Assembly (NCBI GenBank): GCA_902784865.1
Contig: CACZWL010000006.1
Coordinates: 40,112-104,111 of the forward strand
Reading direction: 5' to 3'
Origin: an uncultured Bacteroidota bacterium
GTDB lineage: Bacteria; Bacteroidota; Bacteroidia; Bacteroidales; P3
Length of the DNA stretch: 64,000 bases
Numbering within the stretch: position 1 is the first letter of the stretch; each line of letters begins with the position of its first letter. Below the pieces are notes generated by a model, which searched no databases, had not been told where the DNA came from, and worked only from the letters and a program-made list of their open reading frames with translations. Of this stretch, positions 38,617 to 60,401 are shown piece after piece. The position numbers and the translations under genes are program-made.

Positions 38617-38651
38617 GCGGCCCGCACCACCCTGCGGGCCGCTATCTTTTT
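38617..38651 (+). terminator. Rho-independent terminator of the acd-etf operon
   Basis: gcggcccgca-ccaccc-tgcgggccgc (10-bp stem) followed by tatcttttt. Confidence 0.7.
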
Positions 38652-38653
38652 CT

Positions 38654-38732: not shown

Positions 38733-38740
38733 CAATTTTT

Positions 38741-40024: not shown

Positions 40025-40245
40025 CACACAGACGCATCCTCTCACTCTGCCTGGCTCCACAGGAGATATGGCCTGCGACGTAAGCACGGCAACGCGCAGC
40101 GGGCTGGAGCAAACACACTAACGCATTCCCACACTAACGCATTCTATGTGCCTTCTTTGCCACTTTTGCAAACATACTGAAAATCAAGCAACTGACAACA
40201 CCGACCTTGCAGGACACAAAATACTGATTCTCAACAAGCTACCAT

Positions 40246-40297
40246 GGCGATCCTTCGGCGATTCTTCGGCGGTCTCTCGGCAATCTCTCGGCAGTCC
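40246..40297. repeat. 11-bp tandem repeat (ggcgatycttc-like, 4.5 units)
   Basis: ggcgatccttc ggcgattcttc ggcggtctctc ggcaatctctc ggcagtcc, about 60 nt upstream of the helicase promoter box. Confidence 0.75.
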
Positions 40298-40354
40298 ATT
40301 TATGACCTCTATAGTCACGCTAAAAAATCATTTTGCCAATTCAAAAAGATTTCG

Positions 40355-40362
40355 TATTTTTG
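40355..40362 (+). promoter_or_regulatory. -7 promoter box (TATTTTTG) for the helicase operon
   Basis: Matches TAnnTTTG, 12 nt before the ATG at 40374 (24 nt before the ATG at 40386). Confidence 0.45.
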
Positions 40363-40373
40363 CAAAACAAAAT

Positions 40374-43300: not shown

Positions 43301-43652
43301 GAAGGTGAATGTTGCACAAGGGCCTAATGAAAAACGTGCAATAGCGTATCTTGACGCCTGTCTGCACATTGACAATCTGACGGACGAAGAATCCGGTTTG
43401 ATACGTCTGGCCAAGCGAGCCATCACCAGCGGAAAATTCCAACAATTGCAGCGCGATGTAAATAAACTGCAGTCTGCCACCAAGAAAACGCCTGTAAAAC
43501 CCTCAGTTCTGATAGAGAAAGTCATCGCAATTATCTCCTCATACCCATTACAGAATATTTCTACAGACATACCTACGCATACCCCTTCTGCAAACAAAGT
43601 ACAGAAGGGCAACTCACCGGAAATCATCATCTCCGAAAGTTTTAATTCGTAA
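40374..43652 (+). CDS. PLD-like nuclease domain fused to an SNF2-family helicase
   Basis: N-terminus HAKIYIF...GSSNLTEAG (HxK...GSxN PLD motif). SNF2 motifs VVGLGKT, VIVDEAHKFR, VTATPLNN and QRIGRVNRIGS. Alternative start at 40386. The ORF part upstream of 40374 is rejected. Confidence 0.85.
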   Translation: MLYFMGSNFFTNENQNTLLNKIEGVFQYKKVHFFDALVGYFRASGYFRIRKFVQQTPKIRFLVGINVDKLTYIASQQGLLFTPDADKTLDEFFSDIKQNIQEAKYDKEVEDGMYQFIEDISTGRIEMRIHPKQNIHAKIYIFREETYHSHGFGSVITGSSNLTEAGLEKNFEFNVELRNDDDILFATETFEKLWAESVPISTKHVEEIKKESYLNTELTPYEVYLKFLLEYFGKSIDFDPNSVSDLPKGYKKLSYQIDAVNDGYAKMMKHNGFFLSDVVGLGKTVVTALIAKKFFFSNGFPTYRSHTLVIVPPALQDSWDETLDKFKIDNYKIVTNGSLHKIKDAGLYDLVIVDEAHKFRTDTASMYTELQKICKTPTRRQKPDGSFYNKKVILVTATPLNNKPEDIANLVYLFQDSKDSTLEEGNLQRFFREQIDKYRKLKDQKDIALISEGIKRIYERIRTKVVEPLTVRRTRTDLMSNEAYKKDILEQGVVFPDVQAPEKIYYPLDDQLNELYDRTIKMLCDPYEGLTYNRYQAIKYLRPEKKKKYKKADMISTQLAKIMKTLLVKRIDSSFYAFKQSLKRYSDANRVMREMFDKGTIYIAPNLKVNELLNDGKEDELIKLINESIYADPTIEICVPDDFEDGFLEGIKHDEDILNQLVDGWDKIDYDPKLDMFFEYLDDKLFDKAKNNEGKLVVFSESKETTDYLLDALIQHGYPRTIAVKSSNRNEMMPIVKANFDANYTEGQKNDIDIIISTEVLAEGVNLHRANVIVNYDTPWNSTRLMQRIGRVNRIGSTAKDIYIYNFFPTQKVNDDIELEKKAKMKLFAFHSALGEDSQIYSTDESPETFGLFDKDIDEERDEKLVYLMRLRKLKEEDPDLIKRIARLPMRSRVGRKSKVMRGSTLVFIRNNRRDAFTFIREDGSHEDLTFLEAAKAFEAKVDEKSIPLHDLHHQQVSQAISLFAEKDEDSKAITMKVNVAQGPNEKRAIAYLDACLHIDNLTDEESGLIRLAKRAITSGKFQQLQRDVNKLQSATKKTPVKPSVLIEKVIAIISSYPLQNISTDIPTHTPSANKVQKGNSPEIIISESFNS

Positions 43653-43657
43653 CTTTG
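43650..43657 (+). promoter_or_regulatory. Internal -7 box (TAACTTTG) giving a near-leaderless AlbA_2 gene transcript
   Basis: TAACTTTGcaccATG; the box ends 4 nt before the ATG at 43662. Confidence 0.4.
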
Positions 43658-43661
43658 CACC

Positions 43662-45029
43662 ATGAGCGAGACCAACCGCATAGAATACAAAAGGGAATTG
43701 ACGCCCGACCTCGATATTGAAAAAGAGGTTATTGCCTTTTTGAACTACAAAGAAGGAGGCTACATTTATATTGGCATTGACGATGATGGTTCTGTTGTTG
43801 GGATTGATGATGTCGACGAGTGTATGCTGAAACTGAAAGACCGAATAAAAAACAATATCTCGCCATCAGCAATGGGCCTGTTCGACATCGCAAGCGAGTC
43901 ACACGAGGGGCGCACTGTCATAAAAATCACTGTGGCCAGTGGAATCGATAAACCGTATTTTAAAACTAAATATGGTATGACCCCACGCGGGGCATATATC
44001 CGTGTTGGCACATCGGTTGAACCCTTGCCTCAAGAACAGATTGACCGTCTGTTTGCAATGCGCACACGCAACTCCATCAGCAAGATAGTTTCAAACCGCC
44101 AGGATTTGACATTCGAGCAACTGCGTATCTACTATGACGAACGCGGCAAGCGACTGAACGACAATTTTAAGCGCAGTCTCGAATTAGTTACAAAAGAGGG
44201 AGAATACAATTATGTCGCCTATTTGTTGGCTGACGAGAACAACAATTCCATTAAAGTGGCCAAATACTCCAGCCTTGACCGATGCGACCTGATTGAAAAC
44301 AACGAGTATGGCTATTGCTCGCTTATCAAAGCCACCAAAAGCGTACTGACCAAACTGGAGATAGAGAACAAGACGGCTACGAAGATCACTCCTATGGAAC
44401 GAATCGAAACGCCTCTTTGGGACAGGGTGGCTGTGCGCGAGGCCGTAGTAAATGCTATCGTGCATAACGACTATTCCTTTGAAGTGCCACCCAAGTTCGA
44501 GATTTTCCCCGACAGGCTGGAAATTACCTCCGCGGGCAGACTTCCTGAATCCCTAAGTCGAGAGGAATTCTTTACAGGCATCTCCATCCCGCGCAACAAA
44601 GAGCTGATGCGTATCTATCGCGACCTCGATATTGTGGAATCGTTGGGCTCGGGTATACCGCGCATCCTCCGCTCCTATGGTGAAGATTGCTTCCATTTTA
44701 CTGACAACTTTATCCGAATCACCTTTCCTGCAAGTGTACGCATTGACTATGCAAGTGCATCTGCAAGTGCAACTGAAAATAAGACGGAAAAAACTACGGA
44801 AAAGTGGCCAGAAAAGTGGCCAGAAAAGTGGCCAGAAAAAGGCCAAAAAATATTAGATGCTATCTCTAATGATAAATCAACAACTATCGCAAAATTAGAA
44901 GTAGAACTAAAAATTGGACATACTACTCTAAAAAAGATATTACGTGAGATGCAGAACGAGAACATCATCCGCCATGTCGGACCTGACAAAGGTGGTCACT
45001 GGGAAATTGTAAATAATGACGCTAAATAG
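43662..45029 (+). CDS. AlbA_2 (Schlafen-like) / HATPase_c_4-like / winged-HTH protein (often annotated RecG-like putative transcriptional regulator)
   Basis: 455 aa. N-terminus NRIEYKRELTPDLDIEKEVIAFLNYKEGGYIYIGIDDDG. Middle REAVVNAIVHNDY...ESLGSGIPRI. C-terminus TTIAKLEVELKIGHTTLKKILREMQNENII. Confidence 0.8.
   Translation: MSETNRIEYKRELTPDLDIEKEVIAFLNYKEGGYIYIGIDDDGSVVGIDDVDECMLKLKDRIKNNISPSAMGLFDIASESHEGRTVIKITVASGIDKPYFKTKYGMTPRGAYIRVGTSVEPLPQEQIDRLFAMRTRNSISKIVSNRQDLTFEQLRIYYDERGKRLNDNFKRSLELVTKEGEYNYVAYLLADENNNSIKVAKYSSLDRCDLIENNEYGYCSLIKATKSVLTKLEIENKTATKITPMERIETPLWDRVAVREAVVNAIVHNDYSFEVPPKFEIFPDRLEITSAGRLPESLSREEFFTGISIPRNKELMRIYRDLDIVESLGSGIPRILRSYGEDCFHFTDNFIRITFPASVRIDYASASASATENKTEKTTEKWPEKWPEKWPEKGQKILDAISNDKSTTIAKLEVELKIGHTTLKKILREMQNENIIRHVGPDKGGHWEIVNNDAK
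44799..44834. repeat. Perfect 12-bp x3 tandem repeat (gaaaagtggcca) inside the AlbA_2 gene
   Basis: Encodes (EKWP)x3. A degenerate fourth unit, gaaaaaggcca, follows. Confidence 0.85.
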
Positions 45030-48000
45030 CAAGATAAGAATAAAAATAGCACACAATATGAACCGCCAAGACTTAAAACAGATACTATCATCAAAGTTCG
45101 ACTTCGCCAAGTGGAAAGAACTGCTCCTTGATATGTTCAAGAGTGTTGATTTCTTTACCAAGACTGTAGCCGTTGATGCAGACTTGATAAAGTCTGGTGG
45201 ACAGCTGGGCACAATCCATCTTGGCGATAGGCGTGATATTGCACTTTTCGTTTTTGAAGTGGCAGACCACGTAAAAATAGAAAGAAACCGTATAGGTCTT
45301 CGTAAAATCGGAGCAAAGTATGTCGACCAAAACATCGTTCATGGCGCATTGGTTTTTTACTATTCATCTTCGCAAGCCAACTATCGTTTGACTTATGTGT
45401 CAAAGAAAACGGTTCTGGATGCCGCAGGTAATTTAATCACGCAAGAAACAGCACCGAAACGTTTCACTTTCTTGTTAGGCGAAAACGAACCTTGCAGCAC
45501 CGCTGCACAACGATTGATACGCTTTTTTAATTCCAAGGATGTTCCGGTAATGGCCGATTTAGAAGAAGCTTTTTCGGTCGAGCGCTTGAATAGCGAGTTT
45601 TTTGATGGCTACAAAAGCCAATATAAGAAATTCAAAGATACGCTTCCAAATACGAGACGTCATAGAGACTATGTAAAAAAACTCTTAGGACGCCTTGTGT
45701 TTCTCCAGTTCTTGCAAAAGAGAGGCTGGATGGGCGTTCCTGTCAACGTGGAAGGCTGGGAAGGTGGAGACAAACAATATTTATACAATTTAATTCATCG
45801 TTACGAAGGCAACGATAGATTGTTAAGTGATGTACTTGAATATTTGTTCTTCAATACGTTGAATGAAAAGCGCAATGGCGATATCGCTGATAAACGCCTG
45901 GGAGACAATATCAAAATACCTTATTTGAATGGAGGTCTGTTTGAGAAGGATGATATAGACAGGATGGATATAGATTTCCCTTTCGAATATTTTGCCAATT
46001 TGATAGATTTCTTCTCAATGTATAACTTTACAATTGATGAGAATGACCCTGACGATGCAGAAGTGGGTGTTGATCCAGAAATGTTAGGACATATCTTCGA
46101 AAACCTGCTTGAAGATAACAACGAGAAAGGTGCCTACTATACCCCCAAGGAAATTGTCCAATACATGAGTCAAGAGAGTGTGTCGCAATATTTGAAGAAA
46201 CATCTGGAAGGGGAATTCCAGGAAGCGGTTGACGATTTGATTATGCGGAATGTCGTTGCTGAAGTCATCCAAAACAAGAATGTGGCAAAGAAAATTGACG
46301 AATTATTGGATAACGTTAAAGTATGCGATCCAGCCATTGGCTCGGGAGCATTTCCGATAGGGGTGATGAATGTTTTGTATCGAGCCCATCTGCATCTATA
46401 CGGCTTTTCAAATCCCACTAAACCTTTTTCCCCGGCTTCTGTCAAAAAAGATATTATCCAAAACAACATCTATGGTGTGGATATTGAACAAGGAGCTGTA
46501 GATATTGCACGATTGCGCTTCTGGCTTGCCCTTATCGTTGATGAGGAAGAACCTGTGCCACTCCCCAATTTGGATTATAAAATAGTGTGTGGCGACTCTT
46601 TGTTGAACCGCTACGATCTTGACGTTCCTATTAAATCGGTATTTGTTGAATACAATCAGAGCCATACTGGCAAGGAAAGCAAAATGTCCTTGCAGAAATA
46701 CAAACAATTGGTGGCCGATTTCACTAATACGGATGACCACAATGCAAAAAATATATTCCGGGGTAAAATTGAGGAGATTAAAAACTCATTCCGATTCTAC
46801 TTGTCCAAAAAAGAGGCTAATAGTTTGATGAAATTACGTAGTGAGGTCGCCTATTACAATTATCCCCGTTTTTTTGAAGAAACAGAGGAAGAGGCTGCAC
46901 ATCGTAAGAACCGTCAGGCAGACTTGGCGCAAATGGAGGAGTATGCAAAGAATATTGAGACCAATAGACTCTATAGCAACTCCTTTGAATGGCGCTTTGA
47001 ATACCCTGCATTGTTAGATGAGGATGGAAACTTCACTGGTTTTGACATCATCATTGGCAACCCGCCTTATTTGAGAATTCAGGGCCTTAGAGAAAGGGAC
47101 TCTGACTATGCTGATGAGTTAGTTAAAAAATACAAATCTGCGACAGGCTCCTTCGATTTGTACGAGATGTTTGTTGAACAAGGATTAAAGTTGTCGGGTG
47201 ATAATGGTATCGTGAATTATATCATGCCCACCAAATGGACAAACTCTGCCTTCGGCAAAGGCCTTCGTAAACTATTGGTGGAGCAAACTGCCATTTCGAA
47301 GATTATCAGCTTTGGAGACTATCAGATATTTGATGCATCTACCTACACGGGGCTCCAGTGGTTTGTCAAAGGAAGTACCCGGCTGGAATATTATGAACTG
47401 GATAGAAGCATCACATCGAAAGACGACCTGCAGAAATTCCTATTTTCACTCACTCAAGAGAAATCAACTACAATCGAGATGTCTTCATTGTCCGAGAAAC
47501 AATGGGTACTCACATCTGGCGAAACTTCTCGAATCTTGAAAGAAATGAACAGGCAGCCCAGACACATCAAAGACGTGTTTGACAAGATATTTCAAGGTTT
47601 GGCAACCAGTAAGGATGATGTATATTTCCTTTATAATTGTGAAGAAGAAGGAAAGTACGTTGTTGGAGATTCCAAACAATTAGGCAGGCGAATCAAAGTG
47701 GAGAAAGGAATAGTAAAACCTTTGTTAAAGGGTGGAAATGTACATAGATATGATACTATTTCGACAAATATGTACGTAATATTTCCATACATAATCAAAG
47801 AAGGTAATGCAGTATTGATTCCAGAAGATGATTTAAGTAACAAATTCCCAATGGCGTATTCATACCTAAAAGAAAATGAATCACCTCTCAGAAATAGAGA
47901 ACATGGCAGATTTAACATAGATGGTTCTTGGTTTCAATTTGGAAGAAAACAAGGCATTTTATCAGCTGAAACAGAAAAACTGGTCGCCCCAGATATTTCT

Positions 48001-48603
48001 ATGGGTGGGAATTTCGCCTATGACATTGATGGGAAATTTTATCAGACAACTACAATCTACGGATATTTAAAAAAAGCAAATGTCAAAGAAAGTTACGAAT
48101 TCTGGATGGCGTTGCTTAATTCCCGACTTTGCTGGTGGTTTTTGACAAATACCGGAACCACATTGGCCAATGGTTTCTTCAGATTCAAACCTGATTACAT
48201 TAATCCTTTCCCTATTCCAATTGAAACGCAAACAGAGAAATGTTCATTCATTATTGAGTCATTGGCGACCATGATTCAGTATTTGTATAACAAAAGCAAT
48301 AAAGAATTATATACCCATACCTTGAATGAAAGACTTGCAATCCATCTCGAAGAAATAATAGACATGGTTGTTTACGAGTTATACTTTGAACAACACATGA
48401 AGGAACAAAAGATAGATGTAATTGAGGATTTGAAGGGTTATAAATGGAATAATAACAAAATAATCGCCGAACAAATCAAAGATTTCTATCAATGGTTCCA
48501 GCAGTCCGATAATATGGTTCGTCAAAAGCTAATGCTGCTTGATACTCGCAGTTCAAACCTTTTGTATGAAATCCATAAATCCTGGAGATATGAGCAAAAT
48601 TAA
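45016..48603 (+). CDS. Eco57I-like N6-adenine DNA methyltransferase with TaqI_C-like specificity region (about 1200 aa, no nuclease motif recognised)
   Basis: Motif I VCDPAIGSGAFPIG and motif IV IIIGNPPY. The C-terminal third has FQGLATSKDDVYFL and FRFKPDYINPFPIP. The ATG at 45016 overlaps the upstream gene by 14 nt; the alternative ATG is at 45058. Confidence 0.85.
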   Translation: MTLNSKIRIKIAHNMNRQDLKQILSSKFDFAKWKELLLDMFKSVDFFTKTVAVDADLIKSGGQLGTIHLGDRRDIALFVFEVADHVKIERNRIGLRKIGAKYVDQNIVHGALVFYYSSSQANYRLTYVSKKTVLDAAGNLITQETAPKRFTFLLGENEPCSTAAQRLIRFFNSKDVPVMADLEEAFSVERLNSEFFDGYKSQYKKFKDTLPNTRRHRDYVKKLLGRLVFLQFLQKRGWMGVPVNVEGWEGGDKQYLYNLIHRYEGNDRLLSDVLEYLFFNTLNEKRNGDIADKRLGDNIKIPYLNGGLFEKDDIDRMDIDFPFEYFANLIDFFSMYNFTIDENDPDDAEVGVDPEMLGHIFENLLEDNNEKGAYYTPKEIVQYMSQESVSQYLKKHLEGEFQEAVDDLIMRNVVAEVIQNKNVAKKIDELLDNVKVCDPAIGSGAFPIGVMNVLYRAHLHLYGFSNPTKPFSPASVKKDIIQNNIYGVDIEQGAVDIARLRFWLALIVDEEEPVPLPNLDYKIVCGDSLLNRYDLDVPIKSVFVEYNQSHTGKESKMSLQKYKQLVADFTNTDDHNAKNIFRGKIEEIKNSFRFYLSKKEANSLMKLRSEVAYYNYPRFFEETEEEAAHRKNRQADLAQMEEYAKNIETNRLYSNSFEWRFEYPALLDEDGNFTGFDIIIGNPPYLRIQGLRERDSDYADELVKKYKSATGSFDLYEMFVEQGLKLSGDNGIVNYIMPTKWTNSAFGKGLRKLLVEQTAISKIISFGDYQIFDASTYTGLQWFVKGSTRLEYYELDRSITSKDDLQKFLFSLTQEKSTTIEMSSLSEKQWVLTSGETSRILKEMNRQPRHIKDVFDKIFQGLATSKDDVYFLYNCEEEGKYVVGDSKQLGRRIKVEKGIVKPLLKGGNVHRYDTISTNMYVIFPYIIKEGNAVLIPEDDLSNKFPMAYSYLKENESPLRNREHGRFNIDGSWFQFGRKQGILSAETEKLVAPDISMGGNFAYDIDGKFYQTTTIYGYLKKANVKESYEFWMALLNSRLCWWFLTNTGTTLANGFFRFKPDYINPFPIPIETQTEKCSFIIESLATMIQYLYNKSNKELYTHTLNERLAIHLEEIIDMVVYELYFEQHMKEQKIDVIEDLKGYKWNNNKIIAEQIKDFYQWFQQSDNMVRQKLMLLDTRSSNLLYEIHKSWRYEQN

Positions 48604-50530
48604 CTCAATAACCCTTTCCAACTTCAAGTTCTTTGGTAAAGAAGAAACAATCGAATTAGGTGGTAAGCACCTCCTACTCTACGGTGAGAACGGTAGCGGA
48701 AAAAGTTCTATCTACTGGGCATTATACACATTATTGGAAGCTGCAAGAAAGACTACTCTGGAGACAGGAAAATACTTTGTCCCATTATCCTATAGTGCAG
48801 ATTCCTTACTTAATATACATGCCACCAAAGAATCTTCTCCTGTTGAACACTACAACTCTTATATTCGTATTCTTGATGATGGTAATCATCAGTATGAGTT
48901 ATCTTTATGGAGGGAGAATGTTTGTGGCAATTCTAATATAATGGAGTCTAGACTTTCTTCGGAGTTTATCAACTATCAATCACTGTATAAATTTCAAGAT
49001 TTCAAGAATAGTGAAGATCCTGATCTCTATAACATTTTTATAAACACAATCCTTTCTAACGAGAGTTTTGGAACATACAGATTAAAAGGCAAAATACTAG
49101 ACAATGCGTATGAAATGTGGGTTGAGTTTCAAGATGGCCCGGGCACAACTGTTAACAGCAAAGGAGAAACAATCCAAGTATATAAAAACAGTCAACAATA
49201 TATTGATTTCGTTGATATGGTTAGCGGGTTCAACCGCGGAATGAATGGGTTGATAAATGACATCAATAGCAACGCACAAAAGTATGTTAATAGTCTCGGG
49301 TACAATATGTCCTTTCATCTTGAATACAAAGAGCCTACATTCAAGAAAAAAGATAAAAAATATGAGTGGACACCATTTGGCATCCGTCTTACAATAACAA
49401 AATACGATGGAGTAGACGTAACAGTTGAACGCCCCCACAAGTTTCTAAATGAAGCGAGAATGTCTGCCATAGCAATTGCTATTAGGCTATCTATTATTAA
49501 GCGAAGAATTGGAGCTTCTGCTCCCGATGCACTAAAGTTATTGTTGTTGGATGATATCATGATTAGCCTCGATATGAGCAATCGAGACAAATTGCTAAAA
49601 TTGTTTTTATGTGAGTTAACAAAAGATTTCCAAGTTTTATTATTCACACATGACAAACGCCTATATGAATATATTGGACATCGGATAAACATAGAGAAGC
49701 AAAAGAAAAACTGGATTACATACGAGATGTATTCAGGTATTGATGCCATCAGTAAACATGAAGTTCCTATTATCATTAAATCAGAATGTGAATTTATTGA
49801 TAAAGCAAAGAAATTTTTCGATGTATCAAAAGACTATTCATCTTGTGCAATTAACCTCAGAAAAGCTTTGGAGATGGAGACAGGAAATCGTCTTCCAATT
49901 GAATTGAAAAAAAGAGCAATTGGAGGTTATGTTGATTTGCAAACACTTTGGGACAAGCTGAAGGAATATTATTCTAATAATAAATATCTTGATTCCAAAA
50001 AGATTAAACCAATTGATGACCTTTTTAAAGAATCGAAATTGTTTATTTTAAACCCTTCTGCACACTATCAAAGCCTATCGAATCCTATATATAGAAGTGA
50101 ATTAGAAAAGGCGTTTTTACTGTATTCGGAAGTCGCAGCTTTACCAATAGTGCATAGAGAATTAAAGATATCTAAAGATTCATATATCCTATGTTCTATT
50201 TCTGCAAAAAAATACACTTGTGGCTTTTATCTGGACGACGATTTGGTCGTAGTCGAAGGAGAACACATAATAAGCAGAATGCCAAAATGCTATAAAATTT
50301 TTTGGGAATATAACGGAATAGAATACTATAATTTTGTCACAGGTGTCAAAGATTTAACTAATCCATTAATAAAATCGACTCCCAAATTGGATTCTTTTAT
50401 TAGCAGGCTACCACTTGGTATTGACGAACAAACATTTTTGTCCAACTGTCGTATAAATGGCATACCAATAAATGACTATTTGGGTGGAGTTAATATTTCA
50501 TCATTGATTGTTCAATCCGCAAAACCATAA
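48590..50530 (+). CDS. ABC/SMC-like (RecF/AAA_13-15-23 type) ATPase with an uncharacterised C-terminal domain of about 270 aa
   Basis: 646 aa. ITLSNFKFFG...LLLYGENGSGKSS (Walker A), LLLLDDIMISLD (Walker B/D-loop), LLFTHD (H-loop). Start overlaps the methylase gene by 14 nt. Confidence 0.75.
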   Translation: MSKINSITLSNFKFFGKEETIELGGKHLLLYGENGSGKSSIYWALYTLLEAARKTTLETGKYFVPLSYSADSLLNIHATKESSPVEHYNSYIRILDDGNHQYELSLWRENVCGNSNIMESRLSSEFINYQSLYKFQDFKNSEDPDLYNIFINTILSNESFGTYRLKGKILDNAYEMWVEFQDGPGTTVNSKGETIQVYKNSQQYIDFVDMVSGFNRGMNGLINDINSNAQKYVNSLGYNMSFHLEYKEPTFKKKDKKYEWTPFGIRLTITKYDGVDVTVERPHKFLNEARMSAIAIAIRLSIIKRRIGASAPDALKLLLLDDIMISLDMSNRDKLLKLFLCELTKDFQVLLFTHDKRLYEYIGHRINIEKQKKNWITYEMYSGIDAISKHEVPIIIKSECEFIDKAKKFFDVSKDYSSCAINLRKALEMETGNRLPIELKKRAIGGYVDLQTLWDKLKEYYSNNKYLDSKKIKPIDDLFKESKLFILNPSAHYQSLSNPIYRSELEKAFLLYSEVAALPIVHRELKISKDSYILCSISAKKYTCGFYLDDDLVVVEGEHIISRMPKCYKIFWEYNGIEYYNFVTGVKDLTNPLIKSTPKLDSFISRLPLGIDEQTFLSNCRINGIPINDYLGGVNISSLIVQSAKP

Positions 50531-50543
50531 GTAGATCATTGAT

Positions 50544-51968
50544 ATGGAACAAGCACCTATACTCATCACCACCCAATACGAGGCTGAAAGATTTGAGACA
50601 TTCCTAGCCTTGTCCGACAATCACAGAATCCTATTCTCTGGGAAATATGGGAGTGGCAAGACCTTTTTCTTGCATGAGTTCTTTACTACACGGAAAAAGG
50701 ATGAATATGAGGTATTCCATCTTTTCCCGACTAACTATACAATAGCGAAAAACGAGGATGTCGTCAAACTACTCCAGTTTGATATCTTATATGAGCTACT
50801 GGTGAAAGGTTATCTGGCTCCGTCAAAGAAACTGTTTACTACACAAGAAACCATGGCTGGCTTCGTGCAAAACAATTTCCCTAATATCATTAAGGATGTT
50901 GTATCCCATTGCGGCAAAATCGGAAAGAAACTGTCAGATGTATTTGATACCTACACCCAATGGGCTGCAAAGTACGAGGCCTTCGATAAAGGTATTAACC
51001 AAAATGCAGAAGATAAGGCAAGAGAAGCATTCTATAACCTGATAAATGAGGTTGAATATAATGCCACTACGGAGTTAATAGAGATGATCAACTCCACGAT
51101 TGACAAGCAAAAGGTTCTTATAGTAGATGACCTCGACAGAATTGACCCAGAGCACATCTTCAGATTACTCAACCTCTTCTCAGCACAGACATCCAATTAC
51201 TTCCCCGCCCATTGGCCTATTAACCAGGATGAAAATCGTTATGGGTTCGACAAAATCATATTTGTCTGCGACATAGACAATATCCGCAATATCTTCCGCG
51301 CCAAATATGGTGACGGCGTTGACTTCGCTGGATATATCGACAAATTCTACAGCATAGCGCCCTATTTCTTCAACAATAATAATATGGTTGCCCAAGAGGC
51401 ACACCTTTTTGTTGCATCCATCAACTCTGAATGGCCTGTACAGAGCAGAGAACAGTTCTCCTCGCTTGTCAGGATGCTGTTGTTCCATAATGTCATCACT
51501 TTGAGAAAACTGAAAGAAAAGGAATTTGCACATTGGGAATATCCAACCAGGAAACACCCCTCAATTATCCAAGGAAACAATATATGGTCTGTCGGGATAC
51601 TTGATTTGATGCTTTTTCTATTTGGAACCAAAGAAGACGCAACTGCGGCGTTAAAGAAAAACACTGAAGAAATATCATTAGACTTGTTGGAAAGGTCTGG
51701 CTATCGCCTTACCGATATGTTGATTCCTTTCCTTCTTCCCAATGCCACCTTGACAGTCGGAGAAGATTTTGTTTACGAGAACCAAGACCTTGACATAAAA
51801 TTATACTATAAATGTGAACCTTACAATAGAGAAATCTATGCTGAATTGAAAACAGCTTCCAGTATCAACGGAAGTGAAAGGAAAAAGATACCGTTCTTCC
51901 GACTAATGTCAATCGCTTTGGAAAATTATTGCAAACTGATAGAAGTCCCCAATGTCATAAGATATTAA
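50544..51968 (+). CDS. KAP-family P-loop NTPase
   Basis: 474 aa. ILFSGKYGSGKTFFL (Walker A) and KVLIVDDLDRIDPEHIFRLLN (the KAP-type DDLDR Walker B). Confidence 0.8.
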   Translation: MEQAPILITTQYEAERFETFLALSDNHRILFSGKYGSGKTFFLHEFFTTRKKDEYEVFHLFPTNYTIAKNEDVVKLLQFDILYELLVKGYLAPSKKLFTTQETMAGFVQNNFPNIIKDVVSHCGKIGKKLSDVFDTYTQWAAKYEAFDKGINQNAEDKAREAFYNLINEVEYNATTELIEMINSTIDKQKVLIVDDLDRIDPEHIFRLLNLFSAQTSNYFPAHWPINQDENRYGFDKIIFVCDIDNIRNIFRAKYGDGVDFAGYIDKFYSIAPYFFNNNNMVAQEAHLFVASINSEWPVQSREQFSSLVRMLLFHNVITLRKLKEKEFAHWEYPTRKHPSIIQGNNIWSVGILDLMLFLFGTKEDATAALKKNTEEISLDLLERSGYRLTDMLIPFLLPNATLTVGEDFVYENQDLDIKLYYKCEPYNREIYAELKTASSINGSERKKIPFFRLMSIALENYCKLIEVPNVIRY

Positions 51969-51981
51969 GTGATTCATTCGC

Positions 51982-52053
51982 ATGGAATTCAAACGAGAAC
52001 TGACCAACGACCTTGACATTGAAAAAGAGGTGATCGCATTATTCAAAATCTAA
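51982..52053 (+). pseudogene. 23-codon remnant of a second AlbA_2-family gene
   Basis: MEFKRELTNDLDIEKEVIALFKI* aligns with residues 8-30 of the 43662 gene (EYKRELTPDLDIEKEVIAFLNYK). The DNA is similar but not identical. Confidence 0.65.
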
Positions 52054-52117
52054 GAGTCAGAACACCATAATGTTTGAATGTGCTAATGTGTAAATGTGTT
52101 AGTGAATATCGGAATGC

Positions 52118-53014
52118 ATGAATATGTTAACGACAATGAGCAATAAGAAATCCATACGTTTTTTCAACGACCACGAGGTGCGAGCCATTTGGAACGAGGA
52201 GAACAGCAAGTGGTGGTTCTCCGCCACCGATATGGTTCGCGCCATCAACGATGAAGAGGACTACAAGAAATGCCGCAACTACTGGAAATACTTGAAAGGC
52301 AAGATGGCCAAAGAAGGCATCCAACTGGTTAGTGTCACTAACCACTTCAAATTTATGGCTCCCGACGGCAAACAACGCGCGTCCGACGCTCTTGATGCCG
52401 AAGCTGTACGGACGTTGGCACAACACTACCCCAATAACCGGGCAAACGCTTTCCTCAGCTGGTTCGTCTACAGCGACAACACCATCGACGGACAGAGCAA
52501 GAAGAAAGCCTATACGCTAGCCGAAAGTGGTATCCTCGACAGCATGAAGCCCGGCACCGTCAAATGCCTCCAGCAAATCCACGCCTACCTTTTCGGAGGC
52601 CTCTACGACTTCGCGGGCAAGATACGCACGAAGACCATCGCCAAGGGCAACACACTGTTCTGTTTGGCAGAGCATCTGCAAAGCTACCTGAAAACCGTGG
52701 AGGTAATGCCAGAGACGACATTCGATGAGATAGTAGACAAATACGTGGAGATGAACGCAGCACACCCCTTCATGGAAGGCAACGGCCGTTCGAGACGCAT
52801 CTGGCTCGACTTAATCTTCAAGAAGCAACTGAAGGTGTGTGTCGATTGGAGCAAGATAGACAAACGGGATTACCTCGACGCCATGATAGCCAGCCAGACC
52901 GACAGCAGTCGTATCCGCGAACTCCTCAAAGGCGCATTGACAGACCGCATCGACGACCGCGAGTTGTTCATGAAAGGCATCGACTACTCCTACTATTATG
53001 AACAGGAAGACTGA
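52118..53014 (+). CDS. Fic-family protein with Bro-N-like N-terminal domain
   Basis: 298 aa. HPFMEGNGRSRR matches the Fic motif HPFx(D/E)GNGRxxR. N-terminus IRFFNDHEVRAIWNEENSKWWFSATDMVRAIN resembles Bro-N. Confidence 0.85.
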   Translation: MNMLTTMSNKKSIRFFNDHEVRAIWNEENSKWWFSATDMVRAINDEEDYKKCRNYWKYLKGKMAKEGIQLVSVTNHFKFMAPDGKQRASDALDAEAVRTLAQHYPNNRANAFLSWFVYSDNTIDGQSKKKAYTLAESGILDSMKPGTVKCLQQIHAYLFGGLYDFAGKIRTKTIAKGNTLFCLAEHLQSYLKTVEVMPETTFDEIVDKYVEMNAAHPFMEGNGRSRRIWLDLIFKKQLKVCVDWSKIDKRDYLDAMIASQTDSSRIRELLKGALTDRIDDRELFMKGIDYSYYYEQED

Positions 53015-56246: not shown

Positions 56247-56300
56247 AGGGGACGGTAGGGACTCTCTAGGGGAATACTTCGCCTTGTCCGCGATTGTCCG
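56247..56300. repeat. Left copy of the imperfect direct repeat bracketing island 2
   Basis: aggggacggtagggactctctaggggaatacttcgccttgtccgcgattgtccg. It aligns with 58857-58913 at 51 of 57 columns in my manual alignment. Confidence 0.75.
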
Positions 56301-56330
56301 CCCGGGCGGACAATCGCGGTCTCCTTTTTT
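56288..56330 (+). terminator. Rho-independent terminator after the beta-lyase gene
   Basis: Perfect 16+16 palindrome ccgcgattgtccgccc/gggcggacaatcgcgg followed by tctcctttttt. Confidence 0.8.
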
Positions 56331-56357
56331 AGGGGGCGATGCGCCGCGACCGGAACC

Positions 56358-56450
56358 AGCCCGCGAAGCGGGCGGCACTTTAATTAGCCGTGGGCGCAAG
56401 CCCACGGTATGCGGGGCACCACCTCGTGGAGCCCGCGAAGCGGGCGGCAC
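56358..56450. repeat. GC-rich structured module: 21-bp perfect direct repeat x2 flanking a GCAA-loop hairpin
   Basis: agcccgcgaagcgggcggcac at 56358-56378 and 56430-56450, each holding a gcccgc-GAA-gcgggc mini-hairpin. ccgtgggc-gcaa-gcccacgg lies at 56388-56407. Confidence 0.7.
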
Positions 56451-56532
56451 ACTGGGAACGGATCAATCCATGCCACGCGAAAAAAAATCACCTCATCGGA
56501 AGAAAAATTTGTTTTATTTGCAAAAAATACCT

Positions 56533-56540
56533 TATCTTTA
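56533..56540 (+). promoter_or_regulatory. Near-consensus -7 box (TATCTTTA) for the island-2 genes
   Basis: One mismatch to TAnnTTTG, 19 nt upstream of the ATG at 56560. Confidence 0.3.
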
Positions 56541-56559
56541 GTCTCGCATAATTACGAAT

Positions 56560-56763
56560 ATGAGTAACACAAAATGTATAAATACTATTGAAGGTTATCA
56601 CTTCACTGATATTGATCCAGGGACTACTGCAGGCAGTATGCAAAGTGCCAGATGTAAAAGGCAGAAACTATACGTCATAGAGGCTGCAAGAGCACTTGAA
56701 CATAGAAAGAAACTTATAGATAATGGTAATAAAAATCACATTTTAAAAAGAGATTGGTTTTAA
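56560..56763 (+). CDS. Small hydrophilic hypothetical protein (67 aa)
   Basis: ATG-started ORF in the AT-rich islet. Its stop is 2 nt before the next gene's ATG. No TM segment and no recognisable motif. Confidence 0.4.
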   Translation: MSNTKCINTIEGYHFTDIDPGTTAGSMQSARCKRQKLYVIEAARALEHRKKLIDNGNKNHILKRDWF

Positions 56764-56765
56764 TT

Positions 56766-57896
56766 ATGAAACTTGAAAGCTATCAACGAATAGTAGAGTT
56801 AAATCTAGATGGAACTAAACGTAAATATGTCAAAACTCCAGCTTTTGGCTATCCTGGTTTTTTTGAAGTATTTCCTTATATTGAAGAAAAGCGAGAAGAA
56901 GCTGAAAATGGTAGAAGTCTAGACGAACCGCCTATATTTATAAATACAAGACATCCTAATAATCACGATATTAGCAAATATGGTCCTGTTATTGAAAAAG
57001 AAACTGTTAGTGATTTAGAGCAAAAACTTTATGAAAGTTCTAGATTCCAAGACGGAACTAGAATGCAAGTTATATTTAATCCTAATGGTGTGAACGATAC
57101 TATTATTGGACAATACCCTTTGCCACCAAGACATATAAATCCTGATGTGTTTGTTGACGGAGATAGACATGCCACTTATGACTTACGAGGTAATCCTATG
57201 TGGCATCAAGGGGTTCCTGCACAAAAAGATGATAGAAACAAGAAAAAGAAAGGTGGCAGTACCGATTGGCCACCTAGACGCGTTATTCCATTTATGCCGC
57301 CTCCTATTGATGCTTCTTTGCAAAGTGTTGTTGGAATAAGAGACATTCCTAATGATGAGAAGAAAGCGTATGTACTGAATGATTGGAGAAAAGGAATACA
57401 TAATATGGAGAACGCAACCAATAAAGGACTTGTTGTTACTCCACAAAATGATTCTACATGGTATCCATACGATTCTTATGAAGGCGGAGCAAAGACTGTT
57501 TATGACGGTCTAAAACTAAATCCAGGAACTGATGCTGAAAGGATAATCAAAGAACAAGGTTATTTGACTAATTTTCAAGCAAAAGGGCTATTGTGGGATG
57601 CTCTGTCCGACCATTATGACAAAGCAAAGAAAACATATGAAGCCACAGTCGGAGATGGTTCATGGGACGAGTTAAGTATTGAAGAACAAAAAGTATTGGC
57701 GGATTATTCCTATACTGGAGTACTTCATGAATTTAAAAATTTTATGAGAGGTATAAAAAACAAAGATAGCGAAATAATAAGAAGAGAGTATAAACGTTAT
57801 ATTAATGGAAAACCGCTTAAATCACGTAACGATGAAACAAAAAAGCAATTGGAGCACATTATTGACTCTCATGGTTATAGGTCTCCTAATAAATAA
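56766..57896 (+). CDS. Signal-less protein with a C-terminal GH24 (phage/T4-type) lysozyme-like domain
   Basis: 376 aa. YEGGAKTVYDG (E-x7-Y-D spacing resembles the lysozyme catalytic region), LTNFQAKGLLWDAL, LSIEEQKVLADYSYTG and GKPLKSRNDETKKQL. The N-terminal 230 aa or so are unassigned. Confidence 0.65.
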   Translation: MKLESYQRIVELNLDGTKRKYVKTPAFGYPGFFEVFPYIEEKREEAENGRSLDEPPIFINTRHPNNHDISKYGPVIEKETVSDLEQKLYESSRFQDGTRMQVIFNPNGVNDTIIGQYPLPPRHINPDVFVDGDRHATYDLRGNPMWHQGVPAQKDDRNKKKKGGSTDWPPRRVIPFMPPPIDASLQSVVGIRDIPNDEKKAYVLNDWRKGIHNMENATNKGLVVTPQNDSTWYPYDSYEGGAKTVYDGLKLNPGTDAERIIKEQGYLTNFQAKGLLWDALSDHYDKAKKTYEATVGDGSWDELSIEEQKVLADYSYTGVLHEFKNFMRGIKNKDSEIIRREYKRYINGKPLKSRNDETKKQLEHIIDSHGYRSPNK

Positions 57897-58242
57897 TGGT
57901 TGTGCTAATATAGAAAACAAAGACAACGTAAATGATACTATCTGCGATGCTACTGACAATTTCGCAACAGAAGATAGCAGTTTATATGGTGTGACATCCC
58001 GAATGTTAGATAGTGCCTACCGTAAATACACAATCAATATGACGTTTGTTCAACCTGCTTTACTAAAGTCTGTGAATAATGATAATAAAGAAGAAGCGTT
58101 GATGTATATGGCTAAGATTGATAGTTTATATGATGAAATGGCCGGATTTGTCAATGAGATATTGCTTATGTGGGCATACAGACCTATCGAAACATCAAAC
58201 ATAAATGAATATCTTGGTAGGGAAAATAGATATTATGATTAA
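57832..58242 (+). CDS. Lipoprotein, candidate immunity protein
   Basis: Start MKQKSNWSTLLTLMVIGLLINNGC (lipobox-like). Overlaps the 3' end of the lysozyme-like gene by 65 nt. Confidence 0.55.
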   Translation: MKQKSNWSTLLTLMVIGLLINNGCANIENKDNVNDTICDATDNFATEDSSLYGVTSRMLDSAYRKYTINMTFVQPALLKSVNNDNKEEALMYMAKIDSLYDEMAGFVNEILLMWAYRPIETSNINEYLGRENRYYD

Positions 58243-58269
58243 CCAACACAAGTTTGCCCATAAAGAAGA

Positions 58270-58662
58270 ATGACACCTAATAAAAACATGAAACATATTC
58301 ACGGTATTGTCGCCACTATACTTTTGTTTGTCAGCTGTAGCATAAAAACTGATATTGAAGAAGATTCTATTCCCAATAGTTATGGTATAGACGAACATGA
58401 TATTTCTTCAATTGAGGTTTATGAGAAAACAGGCATTATTCTAGGATAGACAGAATCTTTTCATATAGATGATGATGGAGATACCATTTTTCCCCACCTA
58501 ATACAACAATATAACGAAGAGAGTACTTTATCTCTTTGGTATTGGGAAGATGAAAATGGTGATAGATGGGATTCTGTGTATTATTCTGTGGATGAAAATG
58601 GTTCCTTCTACGATATTGATTCTGCTACAATTGACACCATTCATAGGGTGAAGTTTAATTGA
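58270..58662 (+). pseudogene. Lipoprotein gene interrupted by an in-frame TAG
   Basis: MTPNKNMKHIHGIVATILLFVSCS... runs to TAG at 58447-58449. The same frame then stays open (TESFHIDDDGDTIF...IHRVKFN) to TGA at 58660-58662. Confidence 0.5.
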
Positions 58663-58856
58663 ACTATAGCACGCCCATAAAGAAGAACAACAATAAACAA
58701 CAATTAAAACAAACAAAATTATGATACGTTATAATGCTAATTTCCCTCAACAAAGAGTTGGGGCAGGTGTTAAGAACAAACCTGAATGACAAGAGAATCG
58801 CCTGGACTATGTCATCGATGCCAGCCTTTGCCTGCCGCGAAGGTTGGGGGAATGGT

Positions 58857-58913
58857 AGGGGAACGGTAGGGGCTCTCCAGGGGGAATACTTCGGCCTCGT
58901 CCGCGATTGTCCG
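58857..58913. repeat. Right copy of the imperfect direct repeat bracketing island 2
   Basis: aggggaacggtaggggctctccagggggaatacttcggcctcgtccgcgattgtccg. It keeps only the left arm of the terminator palindrome present in the left copy. Confidence 0.75.
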
Positions 58914-59013
58914 ACCCACCACCGCCACCCCCACCACTCTTATGCAAGGCTCTCTGAACGAACACATTGCAACAAAACCCTGAAAAAAAACACCCACTTC
59001 TCAAAAAAAGTCG

Positions 59014-59021
59014 TATCTTTG
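59014..59021 (+). promoter_or_regulatory. -7 promoter box (TATCTTTG) for the WG-repeat gene
   Basis: Matches TAnnTTTG, 28 nt upstream of the ATG at 59049. Confidence 0.45.
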
Positions 59022-59048
59022 CACCCTGAATTGAAACACCACCGCAAA

Positions 59049-60401
59049 ATGAAACGCACCGCTATACTCCTCCTTGCCACGCTCCTTGCCGCAGGGCTTA
59101 CAAATGCACAAACGCTTGCCTACGAGAGTTCTACGCAGAAATTCGGATACAAAGGCAACAACGGCAACTGGGTCATCAACCCACGCTTTCAGCGCGCCAG
59201 CGAATTCGAAGGCGCCGCCCGAAAATGGGCCCTCGTCAAACTCGACGACCGCTGGGGCGTCATCGACATCGACGGCAACCTCATCTGCCGCAACGTCTTC
59301 CATGAACGCGACGTGGCACGCCAGGCCGCCCAGGAATGGGAGGCCATGAGCGAACCCGGCAAGTGGGTCTACCCCACCCGCAACCCCGCCGACGGCCGCT
59401 GGGGCTTCGTCGACTACTACGGCCGCTGGAAATTCCAGCCCGTCTACGAAGCCGCCAACGTCCACCAAGGTCGCGACCCGAAAAGCTACGCCGCCGTGAA
59501 AAAAGACGGTCGCTGGGGCTGCATCGACGGCCGCGGCGTGCTGGTCATCAACAACATATTCCTTCGCTCCGAAGAAGCCGAGGAAGCCGGCGCCCAATGG
59601 GCCATGGGCCGCAACTACTACAAGTGGCGCCGCGCCGCCACCAACCCCCAGACCGGACTTTGGGGCTTCGTCGACTACCTGGGCCGCTGGGCCGTCCAAC
59701 CCCTATACAGCGAAGTGCTACCCTTCGGCAACGACAACCTCTACGAATACACCCAGGTGAAGCAGGAAGGCCGCTGGGGCAACCTCAACCGCAGCGGCGA
59801 AATCATCACCACACCCATCTTCTTCACCGCCGACCAGGCCGCCTACGCCCTGCGCCAATACGAACACGGCCGCGCCCTCGAAGCCTGGCGCTTCCCCGTC
59901 TCCAACCCCGCCGACGGCAAATGGGGCTGGGTTGACTGGAGCGGCGAATGGCGCATACAGCCACAGTTCGACGATGCCACTCACTTCGCCAACGACACCG
60001 GCCTCTTCGCCACCGCCAAATACGACGGCTACTGGATGGTCATCGGCGACACCGGCGAGTTCCTCTCGCGCAACGTCTTCACCCTCAGTTCCGAAGCCTG
60101 GAACGCCGGCAACGAGTGGGATACCGGCCAAGAACTCGGACACTGGCTCTACCCCATCATGGACCCCGGCACTCAGGCCTGGGGCTATGTCGACTACCGC
60201 GGCCAGTGGGTCATCAAACCCACCCTCGAGGACGCCAAGCTATTCTCCTACGTCTGGAACGACCGCGTGGCTCCCGCCAAGATGGACGGCAAGTGGGGCT
60301 GCATCGACCACACCGGCCAGTTCGTCGTCAAGAACATCTACCATACCTCCGCCGACGCCTTCATCGCCGGCCGACGCTGGGCCGAAGGAAAGAGATTCTA
60401 G
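59049..60401 (+). CDS. WG-repeat (KWG-like beta-propeller repeat) secreted protein
   Basis: Start MKRTAILLLATLLAAGLTNAQ. About ten repeats of the ...GRWGFVDY.G.W.I.P.F... pattern. The upstream ORF extension is rejected. Confidence 0.8.
   Translation: MKRTAILLLATLLAAGLTNAQTLAYESSTQKFGYKGNNGNWVINPRFQRASEFEGAARKWALVKLDDRWGVIDIDGNLICRNVFHERDVARQAAQEWEAMSEPGKWVYPTRNPADGRWGFVDYYGRWKFQPVYEAANVHQGRDPKSYAAVKKDGRWGCIDGRGVLVINNIFLRSEEAEEAGAQWAMGRNYYKWRRAATNPQTGLWGFVDYLGRWAVQPLYSEVLPFGNDNLYEYTQVKQEGRWGNLNRSGEIITTPIFFTADQAAYALRQYEHGRALEAWRFPVSNPADGKWGWVDWSGEWRIQPQFDDATHFANDTGLFATAKYDGYWMVIGDTGEFLSRNVFTLSSEAWNAGNEWDTGQELGHWLYPIMDPGTQAWGYVDYRGQWVIKPTLEDAKLFSYVWNDRVAPAKMDGKWGCIDHTGQFVVKNIYHTSADAFIAGRRWAEGKRF

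Follow-up and report, generated by a model that had tools for sequence, protein, structure and literature searches.

Does the AT-rich islet at ~56335–58825 of the DNA analysed here encode a bacterial weapon with its immunity protein, or did it arise in another way? The islet (~2.5 kb) lies in a 64,000-nucleotide (nt) stretch of contig CACZWL010000006.1 from an uncultured Bacteroidota bacterium, hereafter called the window. It carries the gene of a 376-aa protein with a lysozyme-like C-terminal domain, preceded by a short open reading frame (ORF) of 67 aa and followed by two lipoprotein genes (lpp1 and lpp2). A first-pass annotation of the sequence had proposed that the enzyme and a lipoprotein form an effector-immunity pair. 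By comparison with a phage contig and with a second islet type, which also delimits the islet, we show that at the level of sequence it is a captured slice of a crAss-like phage, namely the accessory hotspot between the terL and portal genes with stubs of both. We put at roughly 60% the probability that this phage-derived slice carries a module of an entry lysozyme and its inhibitor, now a relic or a co-opted copy in the chromosome.

The islet stands out by its composition, with a GC content of 0.31–0.38 from ~56500 to 58750 against ~0.63 on either side. Its junctions recur identically in 18 contigs from several independent studies and assemblies, and it is therefore no assembly artefact or chimera. 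The islet, the ORFs and the overlaps described in the first-pass annotation are all present. The features of the locus are as follows.

56248–56319, + strand: left copy of a dispersed, host-lineage intergenic repeat (56248–56303), then a palindrome and a T-tract
56335–56480, + strand: GC-rich three-hairpin leader with two copies of AGCCCGCGAAGCGGGCGGCAC, the left end common to two islet types
56481–56559, + strand: AT-rich promoter-like stretch (TTTG ... TATCTTTA), recognized by inspection
56560–56763, + strand: 67-aa ORF, of which the 3' third (~56650–56763) is a crAss-like terL 3' remnant and the 5' two-thirds are drifting
56766–57896, + strand: 376-aa ORF with ATG start, comprising an N-terminal module, a linker and a GH24-like domain
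56766–56936, + strand: N-terminal 57-aa module of the 376-aa protein, common with the phage protein P0004 and the chromosomal protein P0005
56937–57362, + strand: probable flexible linker, aa 58–199 (predicted local distance difference test, pLDDT, ~21–31)
57363–57896, + strand: GH24/T4-lysozyme-like domain, aa 200–376, as predicted by AlphaFold2 (AF2) model, Foldseek and profile
57832–58242, + strand: lpp1, lipoprotein gene of 136 aa with a signal ending in LINNGC, candidate cognate inhibitor
58270–58662, + strand: lpp2, lipoprotein gene with a signal ending in FVSC and an in-frame TAG at 58447–58449
58721–58825, + strand: crAss-like portal gene 5' remnant, with 22 identical codons and then TGA at 58787–58789
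58848–58916, + strand: right copy of the dispersed repeat, containing only the left arm of the palindrome

The phage counterpart of the islet is found on a 9.8-kb contig with 32% GC and nine co-directional genes (L007), which is the only phage-like contig with the N-terminal module of the 376-aa protein. Its TerL (phrog_6681, 4e-126) and portal (phrog_6547, 1.5e-111) genes have two genes between them, encoding P0004 and an 83-aa protein. The TerL is 73% identical to that of Wotdevirus murinus and 56% identical to that of Carjivirus communis, the prototype crAssphage; L007 therefore represents a crAss-like phage near the Obtuvirinae and, as judged by sequence, the donor of the islet is a member of the Crassvirales near the Obtuvirinae of the Intestiviridae. 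In the prototype crAssphage, terL directly abuts the portal gene, while one to three variable unannotated genes lie between them in the Obtuvirinae, and the middle module of P0004 is homologous to such a terL-portal gene, cr271_1 gp16 (5e-26). The endolysin gene of L007 (phrog_3000/33083) and two small ORFs are located upstream of terL, and the P0004 gene downstream of it.

At the nucleotide level, the islet matches L007 at both ends, over 56664–56933 (90%) and 58717–58821 (89%). On the left, the 67-aa ORF ends in 37 residues that share 78% identity with the C-terminus of the L007 TerL. On the right, 58721–58786 encodes the first 22 portal residues identically (MIRYNANFPQQRVGAGVKNKPE) and is followed by TGA (58787–58789) where the phage has TGG; the portal homology stops at ~58825. 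Since stubs of terL and portal stand at its two ends, the islet copies the variable hotspot between these genes. Neither an integrase nor further phage genes were found in the 2.5-kb islet. We considered a prophage or an integrative element and rejected it, given the length of only 2.5 kb, the missing integrase, and terL and portal stubs of just 37 and 22–34 codons.

The 67-aa ORF is hydrophilic, has no transmembrane segment and stops 2 nt before the ATG of the 376-aa gene. Between the two chromosomal islet types, its ratio of non-synonymous to synonymous change (pN/pS) is 0.70, near neutrality, for codons 1–43 and 0.10 for codons 44–67, the TerL tail. By sequence, this ORF is thus a terminase stub fused to drifting sequence, and its proposed role as an adaptor has to be given up. 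A role in translational coupling to the downstream gene is still conceivable, because the spacing between its stop and the following ATG equals that between terL and the P0004 gene in the phage.

The 376-aa protein itself is modular. Residues 1–57 are 88% identical to the phage protein P0004 and to the chromosomal protein P0005, beyond which the C-terminal halves differ, such that one 57-aa N-terminus is joined to three different C-terminal halves: the GH24-like domain, one with a weak glucosaminidase match (P0005), and a third. The pN/pS of this module is 0.12–0.42. Residues 58–199 show pLDDT values of ~21–31 in 10-residue blocks with two short helices only, which suggests that they may form a flexible linker. 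The N-terminal 230 residues or so, left unassigned in the first-pass annotation, can accordingly be divided, with residues 1–57 forming the phage-shared module and residues 58–199 modelled at very low confidence; the novel delivery domain once postulated for this region proves to be a module encoded by a phage gene in the terL-portal interval. The lysozyme motifs do fall within the lysozyme domain, which occupies the C-terminal ~45% (aa ~200–376) rather than a third of the protein. As already noted from the translation, the protein lacks a signal peptide, and it also lacks a transmembrane helix, because no hydrophobic segment is present (maximum Kyte-Doolittle 15-residue mean 0.74).

Only five protein clusters among 5.8 billion proteins resemble the full 376-aa protein, and no family match for it was found in Pfam, PHROGs, NCBIfam, PADLOC or PDB sequences. 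Specifically, searches of Pfam, NCBIfam and PADLOC returned no PAAR, VgrG, Hcp or MIX, and Pfam no MuF/SPP1 gp7 domain. No further carriers of the N-terminal module or of the terL tail were found in IMG/VR, in JGI metagenomes or, by tblastn and blastn, in deposited phages. The C-terminal halves of P0004 and P0005 and the annotated Obtuvirinae hotspot genes have no Pfam or PDB assignment, except for the weak glucosaminidase match of P0005. A basic KKKKGGS motif marks a junction at aa 159–165 (nt 57240–57260), with a similar motif before the enzymatic domain of P0004 and P0005 and a KKGGS-type motif in P0003. In addition, residues 273–310 of P0004 match window positions 57189–57302, and over residues 48–149 of the 376-aa protein the linker region is 50% identical to part of the 760-aa protein P0037. 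We also observed that P0037 combines this linker region with a glucosaminidase-like motif (by eye), and that P0003 and P0011 (~395 aa) carry the GH24-like domain behind another conserved N-terminus (MWNDLTLSDK...). The building blocks of the 376-aa protein are thus reused in other orders among its relatives, and KKGGS-type basic motifs recur at the module junctions.

The structure of the C-terminal domain was predicted with AF2 on a 27-sequence alignment of the lysozyme domain; this domain model replaced a first full-length model that was poor (pLDDT 46) and gave only weak matches to T4 lysozyme (T4L). The domain model reached a pLDDT of 93 and a predicted template-modelling score (pTM) of 0.87. 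In a Foldseek search against the PDB, 49 of the 50 matches listed were T4L entries or T4L fusion constructs and the remaining one was pesticin, with probabilities of 0.96–1.00 and template-modelling (TM) scores of 0.44–0.57. The structure matches in BFVD were lysozymes and endolysins; among the nearest viral ones are a podovirus internal virion protein, a 1,003-aa 'endolysin' and a 'cargo protein 1 compact domain-containing protein', the latter two crAss-like. Together with the conserved Glu/Glu/Thr residues and a profile link to PF00959, these matches bear out the GH24 lysozyme-like domain named in the first-pass annotation, and its lysozyme fold is confirmed in the predicted structure.

The candidate catalytic residues are E215 (57408–57410), E239 (57480–57482) and T244 (57495–57497). 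Among the 27 family members, E215, E239 and G240–G241 are invariant, and T244 is at least 90% conserved. As aligned by hhalign, T244 falls on T4L Thr26 and G248 on Gly30, and the invariant E239-G-G falls on the D20-T-E-G turn of T4L. The invariant E215–N216 lies in the model at the end of helix 1, where T4L has Glu11, and on this position rests the putative equivalence of E215 with T4L E11. The model also contains a ~15-residue beta-hairpin insertion between the two acidic residues. The PF00959 model gives no direct match to the 376-aa protein (no Pfam match at E ≤ 1), and the link is transitive only, with the profile of the lysozyme-domain family reaching PF00959 proteins at 1e-47 to 1e-21, three of which are named 'GH24 family phage-related lysozyme' by JGI. 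The best sequence-profile match in the PDB is the gp5 lysozyme domain (6xc0, 7cn7, E ~0.09). An exhaustive HMMER scan of 1.84 billion representatives revealed at least 286 proteins that share only residues ~200–365; the lysozyme-domain proteins range from 137 to more than 2,400 aa, with SLT or PG_binding_1 as an additional domain in some of them. As modelled, the C-terminal domain is a divergent, Pfam-less branch of the GH24 superfamily, with a predicted muramidase activity.

The gene lpp1 starts at 57832 and overlaps the 3' end of the 376-aa gene by 65 nt. The hydrophobic N-terminus of its product ends in LINNGC, a C-terminal transmembrane segment is absent, and no relative of the mature protein was found among solved structures. 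Among the 5.8 billion proteins, lpp1 has relatives in one other branch only, namely a 137-aa lipoprotein of locus L008 (lipobox IAAC; 55% identity, E = 4e-31). This lipoprotein overlaps the 3' end of P0002, which is the closest homologue of the lysozyme (59% identity) and resides in an unrelated high-GC Bacteroidales context without terL or portal stubs (L008/L009). The lysozyme and the lipoprotein are therefore paired in two independent contexts, as expected of a cognate partner, and lpp1 fits the role of a candidate cognate inhibitor of the lysozyme. Among the three C-terminal variants sharing the 57-aa module, only the GH24 variant is accompanied by a candidate immunity gene; islets of the P0005 type have no lipoprotein partner, and a transposase-like gene comes next in them.

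For lpp2, no homologue and no family match were found. Its TAG at 58447–58449 was read in the window and in four sister strains (L011–L014), and one internal stop is present in lpp2 in 14/14 population sequences. Since stop-codon recoding is known in Crass-like phages (PMC10136315), the TAG could stem from a recoding donor phage; a plain nonsense mutation is equally possible.

To see how the islet varies within the host species, we compared 14 sequences. Every variable codon in the three main islet ORFs is non-synonymous (7/7 in the 376-aa ORF, 2/2 in lpp1 and 2/2 in the 67-aa ORF), and no islet ORF is disrupted, lpp2 excepted. Five flanking host genes contain 13 non-synonymous and 16 synonymous changes, which differs from the islet (Fisher p = 0.0012); if neutrality predicts 78% non-synonymous changes, the 11/11 of the islet gives p = 0.07. 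Even the conserved-motif residue Y342 differs among strains. The islet genes are not under ordinary purifying selection and are either drifting or diversifying. The low density of polymorphisms might be taken for purifying selection; we rejected this, since AT-rich non-coding parts of the islet are similar in density and the ratio of non-synonymous to synonymous changes shows the opposite.

The left end of the islet is shared with the second islet type. Window-type and L001-type islets adjoin different genes and have the same left boundary at ~56335–56340, as seen in the alignment of the window, L001 and L005. Common to window and L001 islets are the GC-rich leader and the promoter-like stretch. 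The latter (56481–56559) resembles the Bacteroidota -33/-7 consensus, is nearly identical in the two islets, and is deleted in L005; the call was made by inspection and from general knowledge of Bacteroidota promoters, which a sigma-70 scan does not cover. The leader was found neither in the phage L007 nor in deposited phages, and the promoter-like stretch is likewise missing from the phage. It has a fold z-score of -2.4, and its 21-mer AGCCCGCGAAGCGGGCGGCAC is confined to the leader within the window. As further observations on the leader, hairpin 2 keeps a GNRA loop despite changes (GCAA vs GTGA), and in hairpin 3 both arms have changed with pairing kept (GCCCGC/GCGGGC vs GCCCC/GGGGC). An intron fragment, a riboswitch and a tRNA were each considered for the leader and discarded, as the only match was a sub-threshold one to Rfam Acido-Lenti-1 on the opposite (minus) strand (27.6 bits vs a gathering score of 37), and no tRNA was found.

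The flanking aminotransferase has its best match, at 80% identity, in the metagenome-assembled genome (MAG) RGIG4882, and is 74% identical to that of 'bacterium P3'; by sequence, the host is an uncultured high-GC ruminant-gut Bacteroidales. Among the 18 contigs, the islet occupied the same position in 10/10 places shown with an identical aminotransferase, and it is present in every sampled contig of the host species, that is, fixed. An empty site was not found in a scan of genome collections with the aminotransferase, synteny being unconserved between species, and 80 related aminotransferase loci contained neither the islet nor the leader nor the repeat.

How might such a slice have worked? 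In the phage, the 376-aa protein would be a virion-carried cell-wall hydrolase of the cargo or ejection type. Its N-terminal 57-aa module would target it into the particle or to the portal, and its middle region would serve as a flexible linker for passage through the tail; at phage entry, the lysozyme domain would then cleave peptidoglycan. The overlapping lipoprotein lpp1 would be a periplasm-facing inhibitor of the same lysozyme and exclude superinfecting relatives. A cargo role is suggested by the position of the gene, by the probably flexible linker, and by the crAss-like cargo protein and podovirus internal virion protein among the structure matches; cargo proteins packaged by crassviruses leave the particle before the DNA, in a partly unfolded state (PMC10172136). 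Once in the bacterium, the slice would have acquired a Bacteroidota-type promoter; it may be a slowly decaying relic, or it may have been retained for a hindrance of related phages by the lipoprotein or by a decoy effect of the cargo-like protein.

Several points weigh against this reading. The co-occurrence of lysozyme and lipoprotein amounts to two independent cases, and the pair was seen in chromosomes only and in no phage, the hotspot protein of L007 preceding a soluble 83-aa protein that is not a lipoprotein. The N-terminal module, which would mark the protein as virion cargo, has no detectable homologue outside three protein clusters. The 11/11 non-synonymous polymorphisms are compatible with plain decay. 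A phage of 32% GC and a host of 63% GC make an odd pair if the one infects the other, and this reading accounts neither for the common leader nor for the mechanism of insertion.

In a further version, which we regard as unlikely, the bacterium has co-opted the crAss-like entry module as an anti-phage device driven by the acquired host promoter. The lipoprotein would then neutralise the incoming virion lysozyme in the periplasm, amounting to superinfection exclusion without a prophage, and/or the protein would act as decoy cargo, packaged via its phage-type N-terminal module in place of the phage enzyme. The retained terL-3' and portal-5' arms could also let the chromosome and infecting phages swap hotspot cassettes. 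The mosaic family would follow from such swapping, if true, and the all-non-synonymous polymorphism from an arms race.

Among the other explanations, the most serious is that the islet is a functionless fossil, in which phage DNA inserted by illegitimate recombination is decaying and neither enzyme nor lipoprotein has a role in the host. We consider this improbable but by no means negligible. Both flanking phage genes are truncated, stops interrupt the portal stub and lpp2, residue Y342 varies among strains, and the 11/11 polymorphisms are compatible with neutrality (p = 0.07), unlike those of the flanks (p = 0.001). Three suggestive observations speak for some retained role: the ORFs of the 376-aa protein and lpp1 are intact in 14/14 sequences, as is the P0005-type paralogue in 24 contigs; a conserved Bacteroidota-type promoter stretch has been acquired that is common to two islet types differing by 14%; and the islet, carried by all sampled contigs of the species, has a second site in a related host. 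The interbacterial module envisaged in the first-pass annotation, a muramidase effector exported by a contact-dependent system such as the Bacteroidales type VI secretion system (T6SS) with a lipoprotein protecting the periplasm of the producer, is in our view very doubtful. Several of its traits are genuine, including a signal-less GH24-like enzyme with an overlapping lipoprotein and a degenerate second one, a polymorphic architecture of one N-terminus with several C-terminal halves, and the presence of the lipoprotein beside the lysozyme family at a second locus. In polymorphic toxin systems (PMC3482391), a conserved N-terminal region for trafficking is joined to exchangeable toxin domains at the C-terminus, and genes for cognate immunity accompany them. 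The non-synonymous excess would fit an arms race as well, and the periplasm-facing partner co-varies with the toxin domain, a feature that is equally common to phage exclusion pairs and bacteriocins. However, both flanks and the N-terminal module derive from the terL-portal region of a phage, the proposed adaptor is a terminase stub, and no link to secretion was found. The 376-aa protein has no match to PAAR, VgrG, Hcp, MIX or any other entry of Pfam, NCBIfam or PADLOC, and no T6SS markers or other secretion genes occur in the five neighbourhood types of its homologues.

Two more explanations draw on the lysozyme fold. That the islet is left over from a phage lysis cassette, in which the 376-aa protein was the endolysin and the lipoproteins were parts of a spanin, had been offered as the alternative, and its premise of phage-derived DNA holds; a lysozyme fold is also combined with small lipoprotein genes that overlap as in spanin pairs. 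The DNA comes from the terL-portal hotspot, however, whereas upstream of terL the related phage encodes an endolysin of its own, followed by two small membrane-type ORFs. Moreover, the 376-aa protein is more than twice the size of a typical GH24 endolysin, and its 200-aa N-terminal part opens with a module common to non-homologous enzymes. The islet encodes no holin-like transmembrane protein, and the lipoprotein overlaps the lysozyme gene rather than an inner-membrane spanin gene and has no C-terminal transmembrane segment, which together make a lysis origin highly improbable. We give slightly less credence still to a pesticin-like bacteriocin, that is, a T4-lysozyme-type toxin that is released from the cell and whose N-terminal translocation region is disordered, together with a periplasmic immunity lipoprotein and a broken release lipoprotein. 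Pesticin is among the best structural matches, the layout is colicin-like, with a low-confidence N-terminal part before the killing domain and no signal peptide, and an immunity-like lipoprotein lies downstream. Against it, the arguments for a phage origin apply equally, a phage block of structural genes contains the N-terminal module as well, no evidence was obtained for receptor binding or a TonB box, and homology to pesticin does not extend beyond the common fold.

Turning to the surroundings of the islet, the dispersed repeat consists of one to three GGTAGG(T/G) units followed by a GAAYACTTCG box (GAATACTTCG in the left copy). It occurs at four sites of the window (138–176, 20737–20775, 56254–56281 and 58854–58893), where none is expected by chance, and also at L001 7432–7459, just left of the L001-type islet (L001–L006); both islet types thus lie just downstream of a copy. 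In related species, no copy was found in 80 loci. All copies are on the + strand, and a locus-specific palindrome follows in at least three of them, including, by inspection, the left islet copy and the L001 copy. After the left copy come a perfect 16-bp palindrome and a T-tract (56288–56319), which resemble a terminator hairpin of the upstream aminotransferase gene. The left and right islet copies are 88% identical over 58 nt and closer to each other than to the other copies. We asked whether these 58-nt flanking direct repeats (56248–56303 and 58859–58916) might be att sites or a target duplication; as they belong to a dispersed host repeat family, this is not the simplest reading.

Several further observations concern neighbouring genes. 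To the right, gene callers start a WG-repeat protein (555 aa, 58734–60401) at an ATG at 58734 inside the phage-derived islet; translation more probably begins with the signal-peptide-like MKRTAILLLATLLAAG at 59049. To the left, window positions 38585–53014 form a 14.5-kb low-GC (0.34–0.46) anti-phage defence island with all genes on the + strand, which encode an AAA_14/DUF4143 ATPase, a 1,168-aa SNF2 helicase with a PLD nuclease domain, a Schlafen AlbA_2 protein, a 1,195-aa Eco57I/MmeI-type methyltransferase, an SMC-like ATPase, a KAP NTPase and a Fic protein. The same spot holds a different 2.7-kb gene set in the sister strain L011 and another in L106, and is therefore a strain-variable hotspot, located 3.5 kb upstream of the lysozyme islet. 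The P0005-type islets are followed by transposase-like genes (L001 9252–9959, L004 2564–3361 and L005 2434–3078), including one for a 235-aa zinc-ribbon-type protein and, in L004, an insertion sequence of the rve family. An insertion polymorphism is present at L001 10182, with a PIN/Fic-containing low-GC region beyond. On the phage contig, L007 410–1618 is a candidate lysis cassette of a 206-aa endolysin, a 92-aa single-transmembrane protein and a 129-aa protein. The motif 'IHRS...SAGCQV' of the endolysin resembles, by eye, catalytic sites of the L,D-transpeptidase/YkuD type, and the 129-aa protein appears on inspection to be unimolecular-spanin-like, with a lipoprotein signal and a C-terminal transmembrane segment.

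Virion lysozymes with an inhibitor, polymorphic head-module proteins and phage relics are known themes, which take a new form here in the pair of lysozyme and lipoprotein and in a crAss-like hotspot cassette captured by a chromosome; the lysozyme is a new member of a known superfamily. Through the islet, an uncultured crAss-like lineage of ruminants is physically linked to a host, and this link points to a Bacteroidales of 63% GC (with the 'bacterium P3' MAG among its relatives), far from the usual Bacteroides and Prevotella hosts. The capture involves a phage group thought to be strictly lytic (PMC10136315). The Pfam-less GH24 subfamily of at least 286 proteins, often found in very large proteins and at least in part phage-encoded, suggests that some crAss-like particles may carry lysozyme-type entry enzymes. 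If the cassette protects against crAss-like phages, it would represent a new kind of phage-derived defence. The locus also corrects a tempting mis-annotation, as a signal-less lysozyme with a lipoprotein looks like a T6SS effector-immunity pair.

Finally, we compared the islet with known systems. Like Tge/Tgi and pesticin/Pim, it encodes a signal-less lysozyme-fold toxin with a periplasm-facing protein directly downstream; unlike them, it has phage flanks, a phage N-terminal module and no secretion marker, and no homology to Tge, Tgi or Pim was found. In phage head modules, MuF-type toxins join a particle-associated N-terminal module to exchangeable C-terminal enzymes. The genes compared here are similar in lying beside the portal gene and in that one variant has a small gene for a cognate partner next to it, whereas they have no MuF/SPP1 gp7 domain, the domains that could be assigned, a GH24-like one here and one in P0005 that weakly matches glucosaminidase, would be cell-wall enzymes rather than nucleases or ADP-ribosyltransferases, and their source phage is a lytic crAss-like virus.

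With gp45 (C1) of crAss001, which is encoded in the late/structural region and is partly unfolded or extended (PMC10172136), the 376-aa protein shares the location in a structural region, and its lysozyme domain matches an annotated crAss-like cargo protein structure. The compact domain of gp45 is not described as a lysozyme in the crAss001 paper (PMC10172136), and the two proteins differ in length (376 aa vs ~800 aa), in the lack of a predicted transmembrane helix here and in detectable sequence homology, of which there is none; moreover, the 376-aa gene belongs to the terL-portal hotspot. With T4 lysozyme and PF00959, the domain shares the fold, the equivalents of Thr26 and Gly30, and an invariant Glu at the end of helix 1. 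It differs from them in being missed by Pfam, NCBIfam and PHROG models, in having Glu as the second acidic residue where T4L has Asp, and in the ~15-residue beta-hairpin insertion; unlike the free-standing GH24 endolysins of ~160 aa, it is part of a 376-aa modular protein.

The T4 gp5/Spackle (gp61.3) pair differs from the proposed one in its carrier, a myovirus baseplate spike rather than the cargo protein of a crAss-like podovirus, and in its blocker, as lpp1 has no sequence similarity to Spackle and is encoded by a lipoprotein gene that overlaps the lysozyme gene. In T4, the sp gene for Spackle is unlinked to gene 5. In the reading that we favour, that of an entry lysozyme with its inhibitor, both systems would combine a virion GH24 domain with a small phage-encoded periplasmic blocker acting in superinfection exclusion, and the gp5-Spackle complex (7cn7) is among the fold matches of the domain. 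T4 gp5/Spackle would thus be the closest analogue of the proposed lysozyme-lpp1 pair, and the islet a compact version in which enzyme and candidate inhibitor are encoded together.

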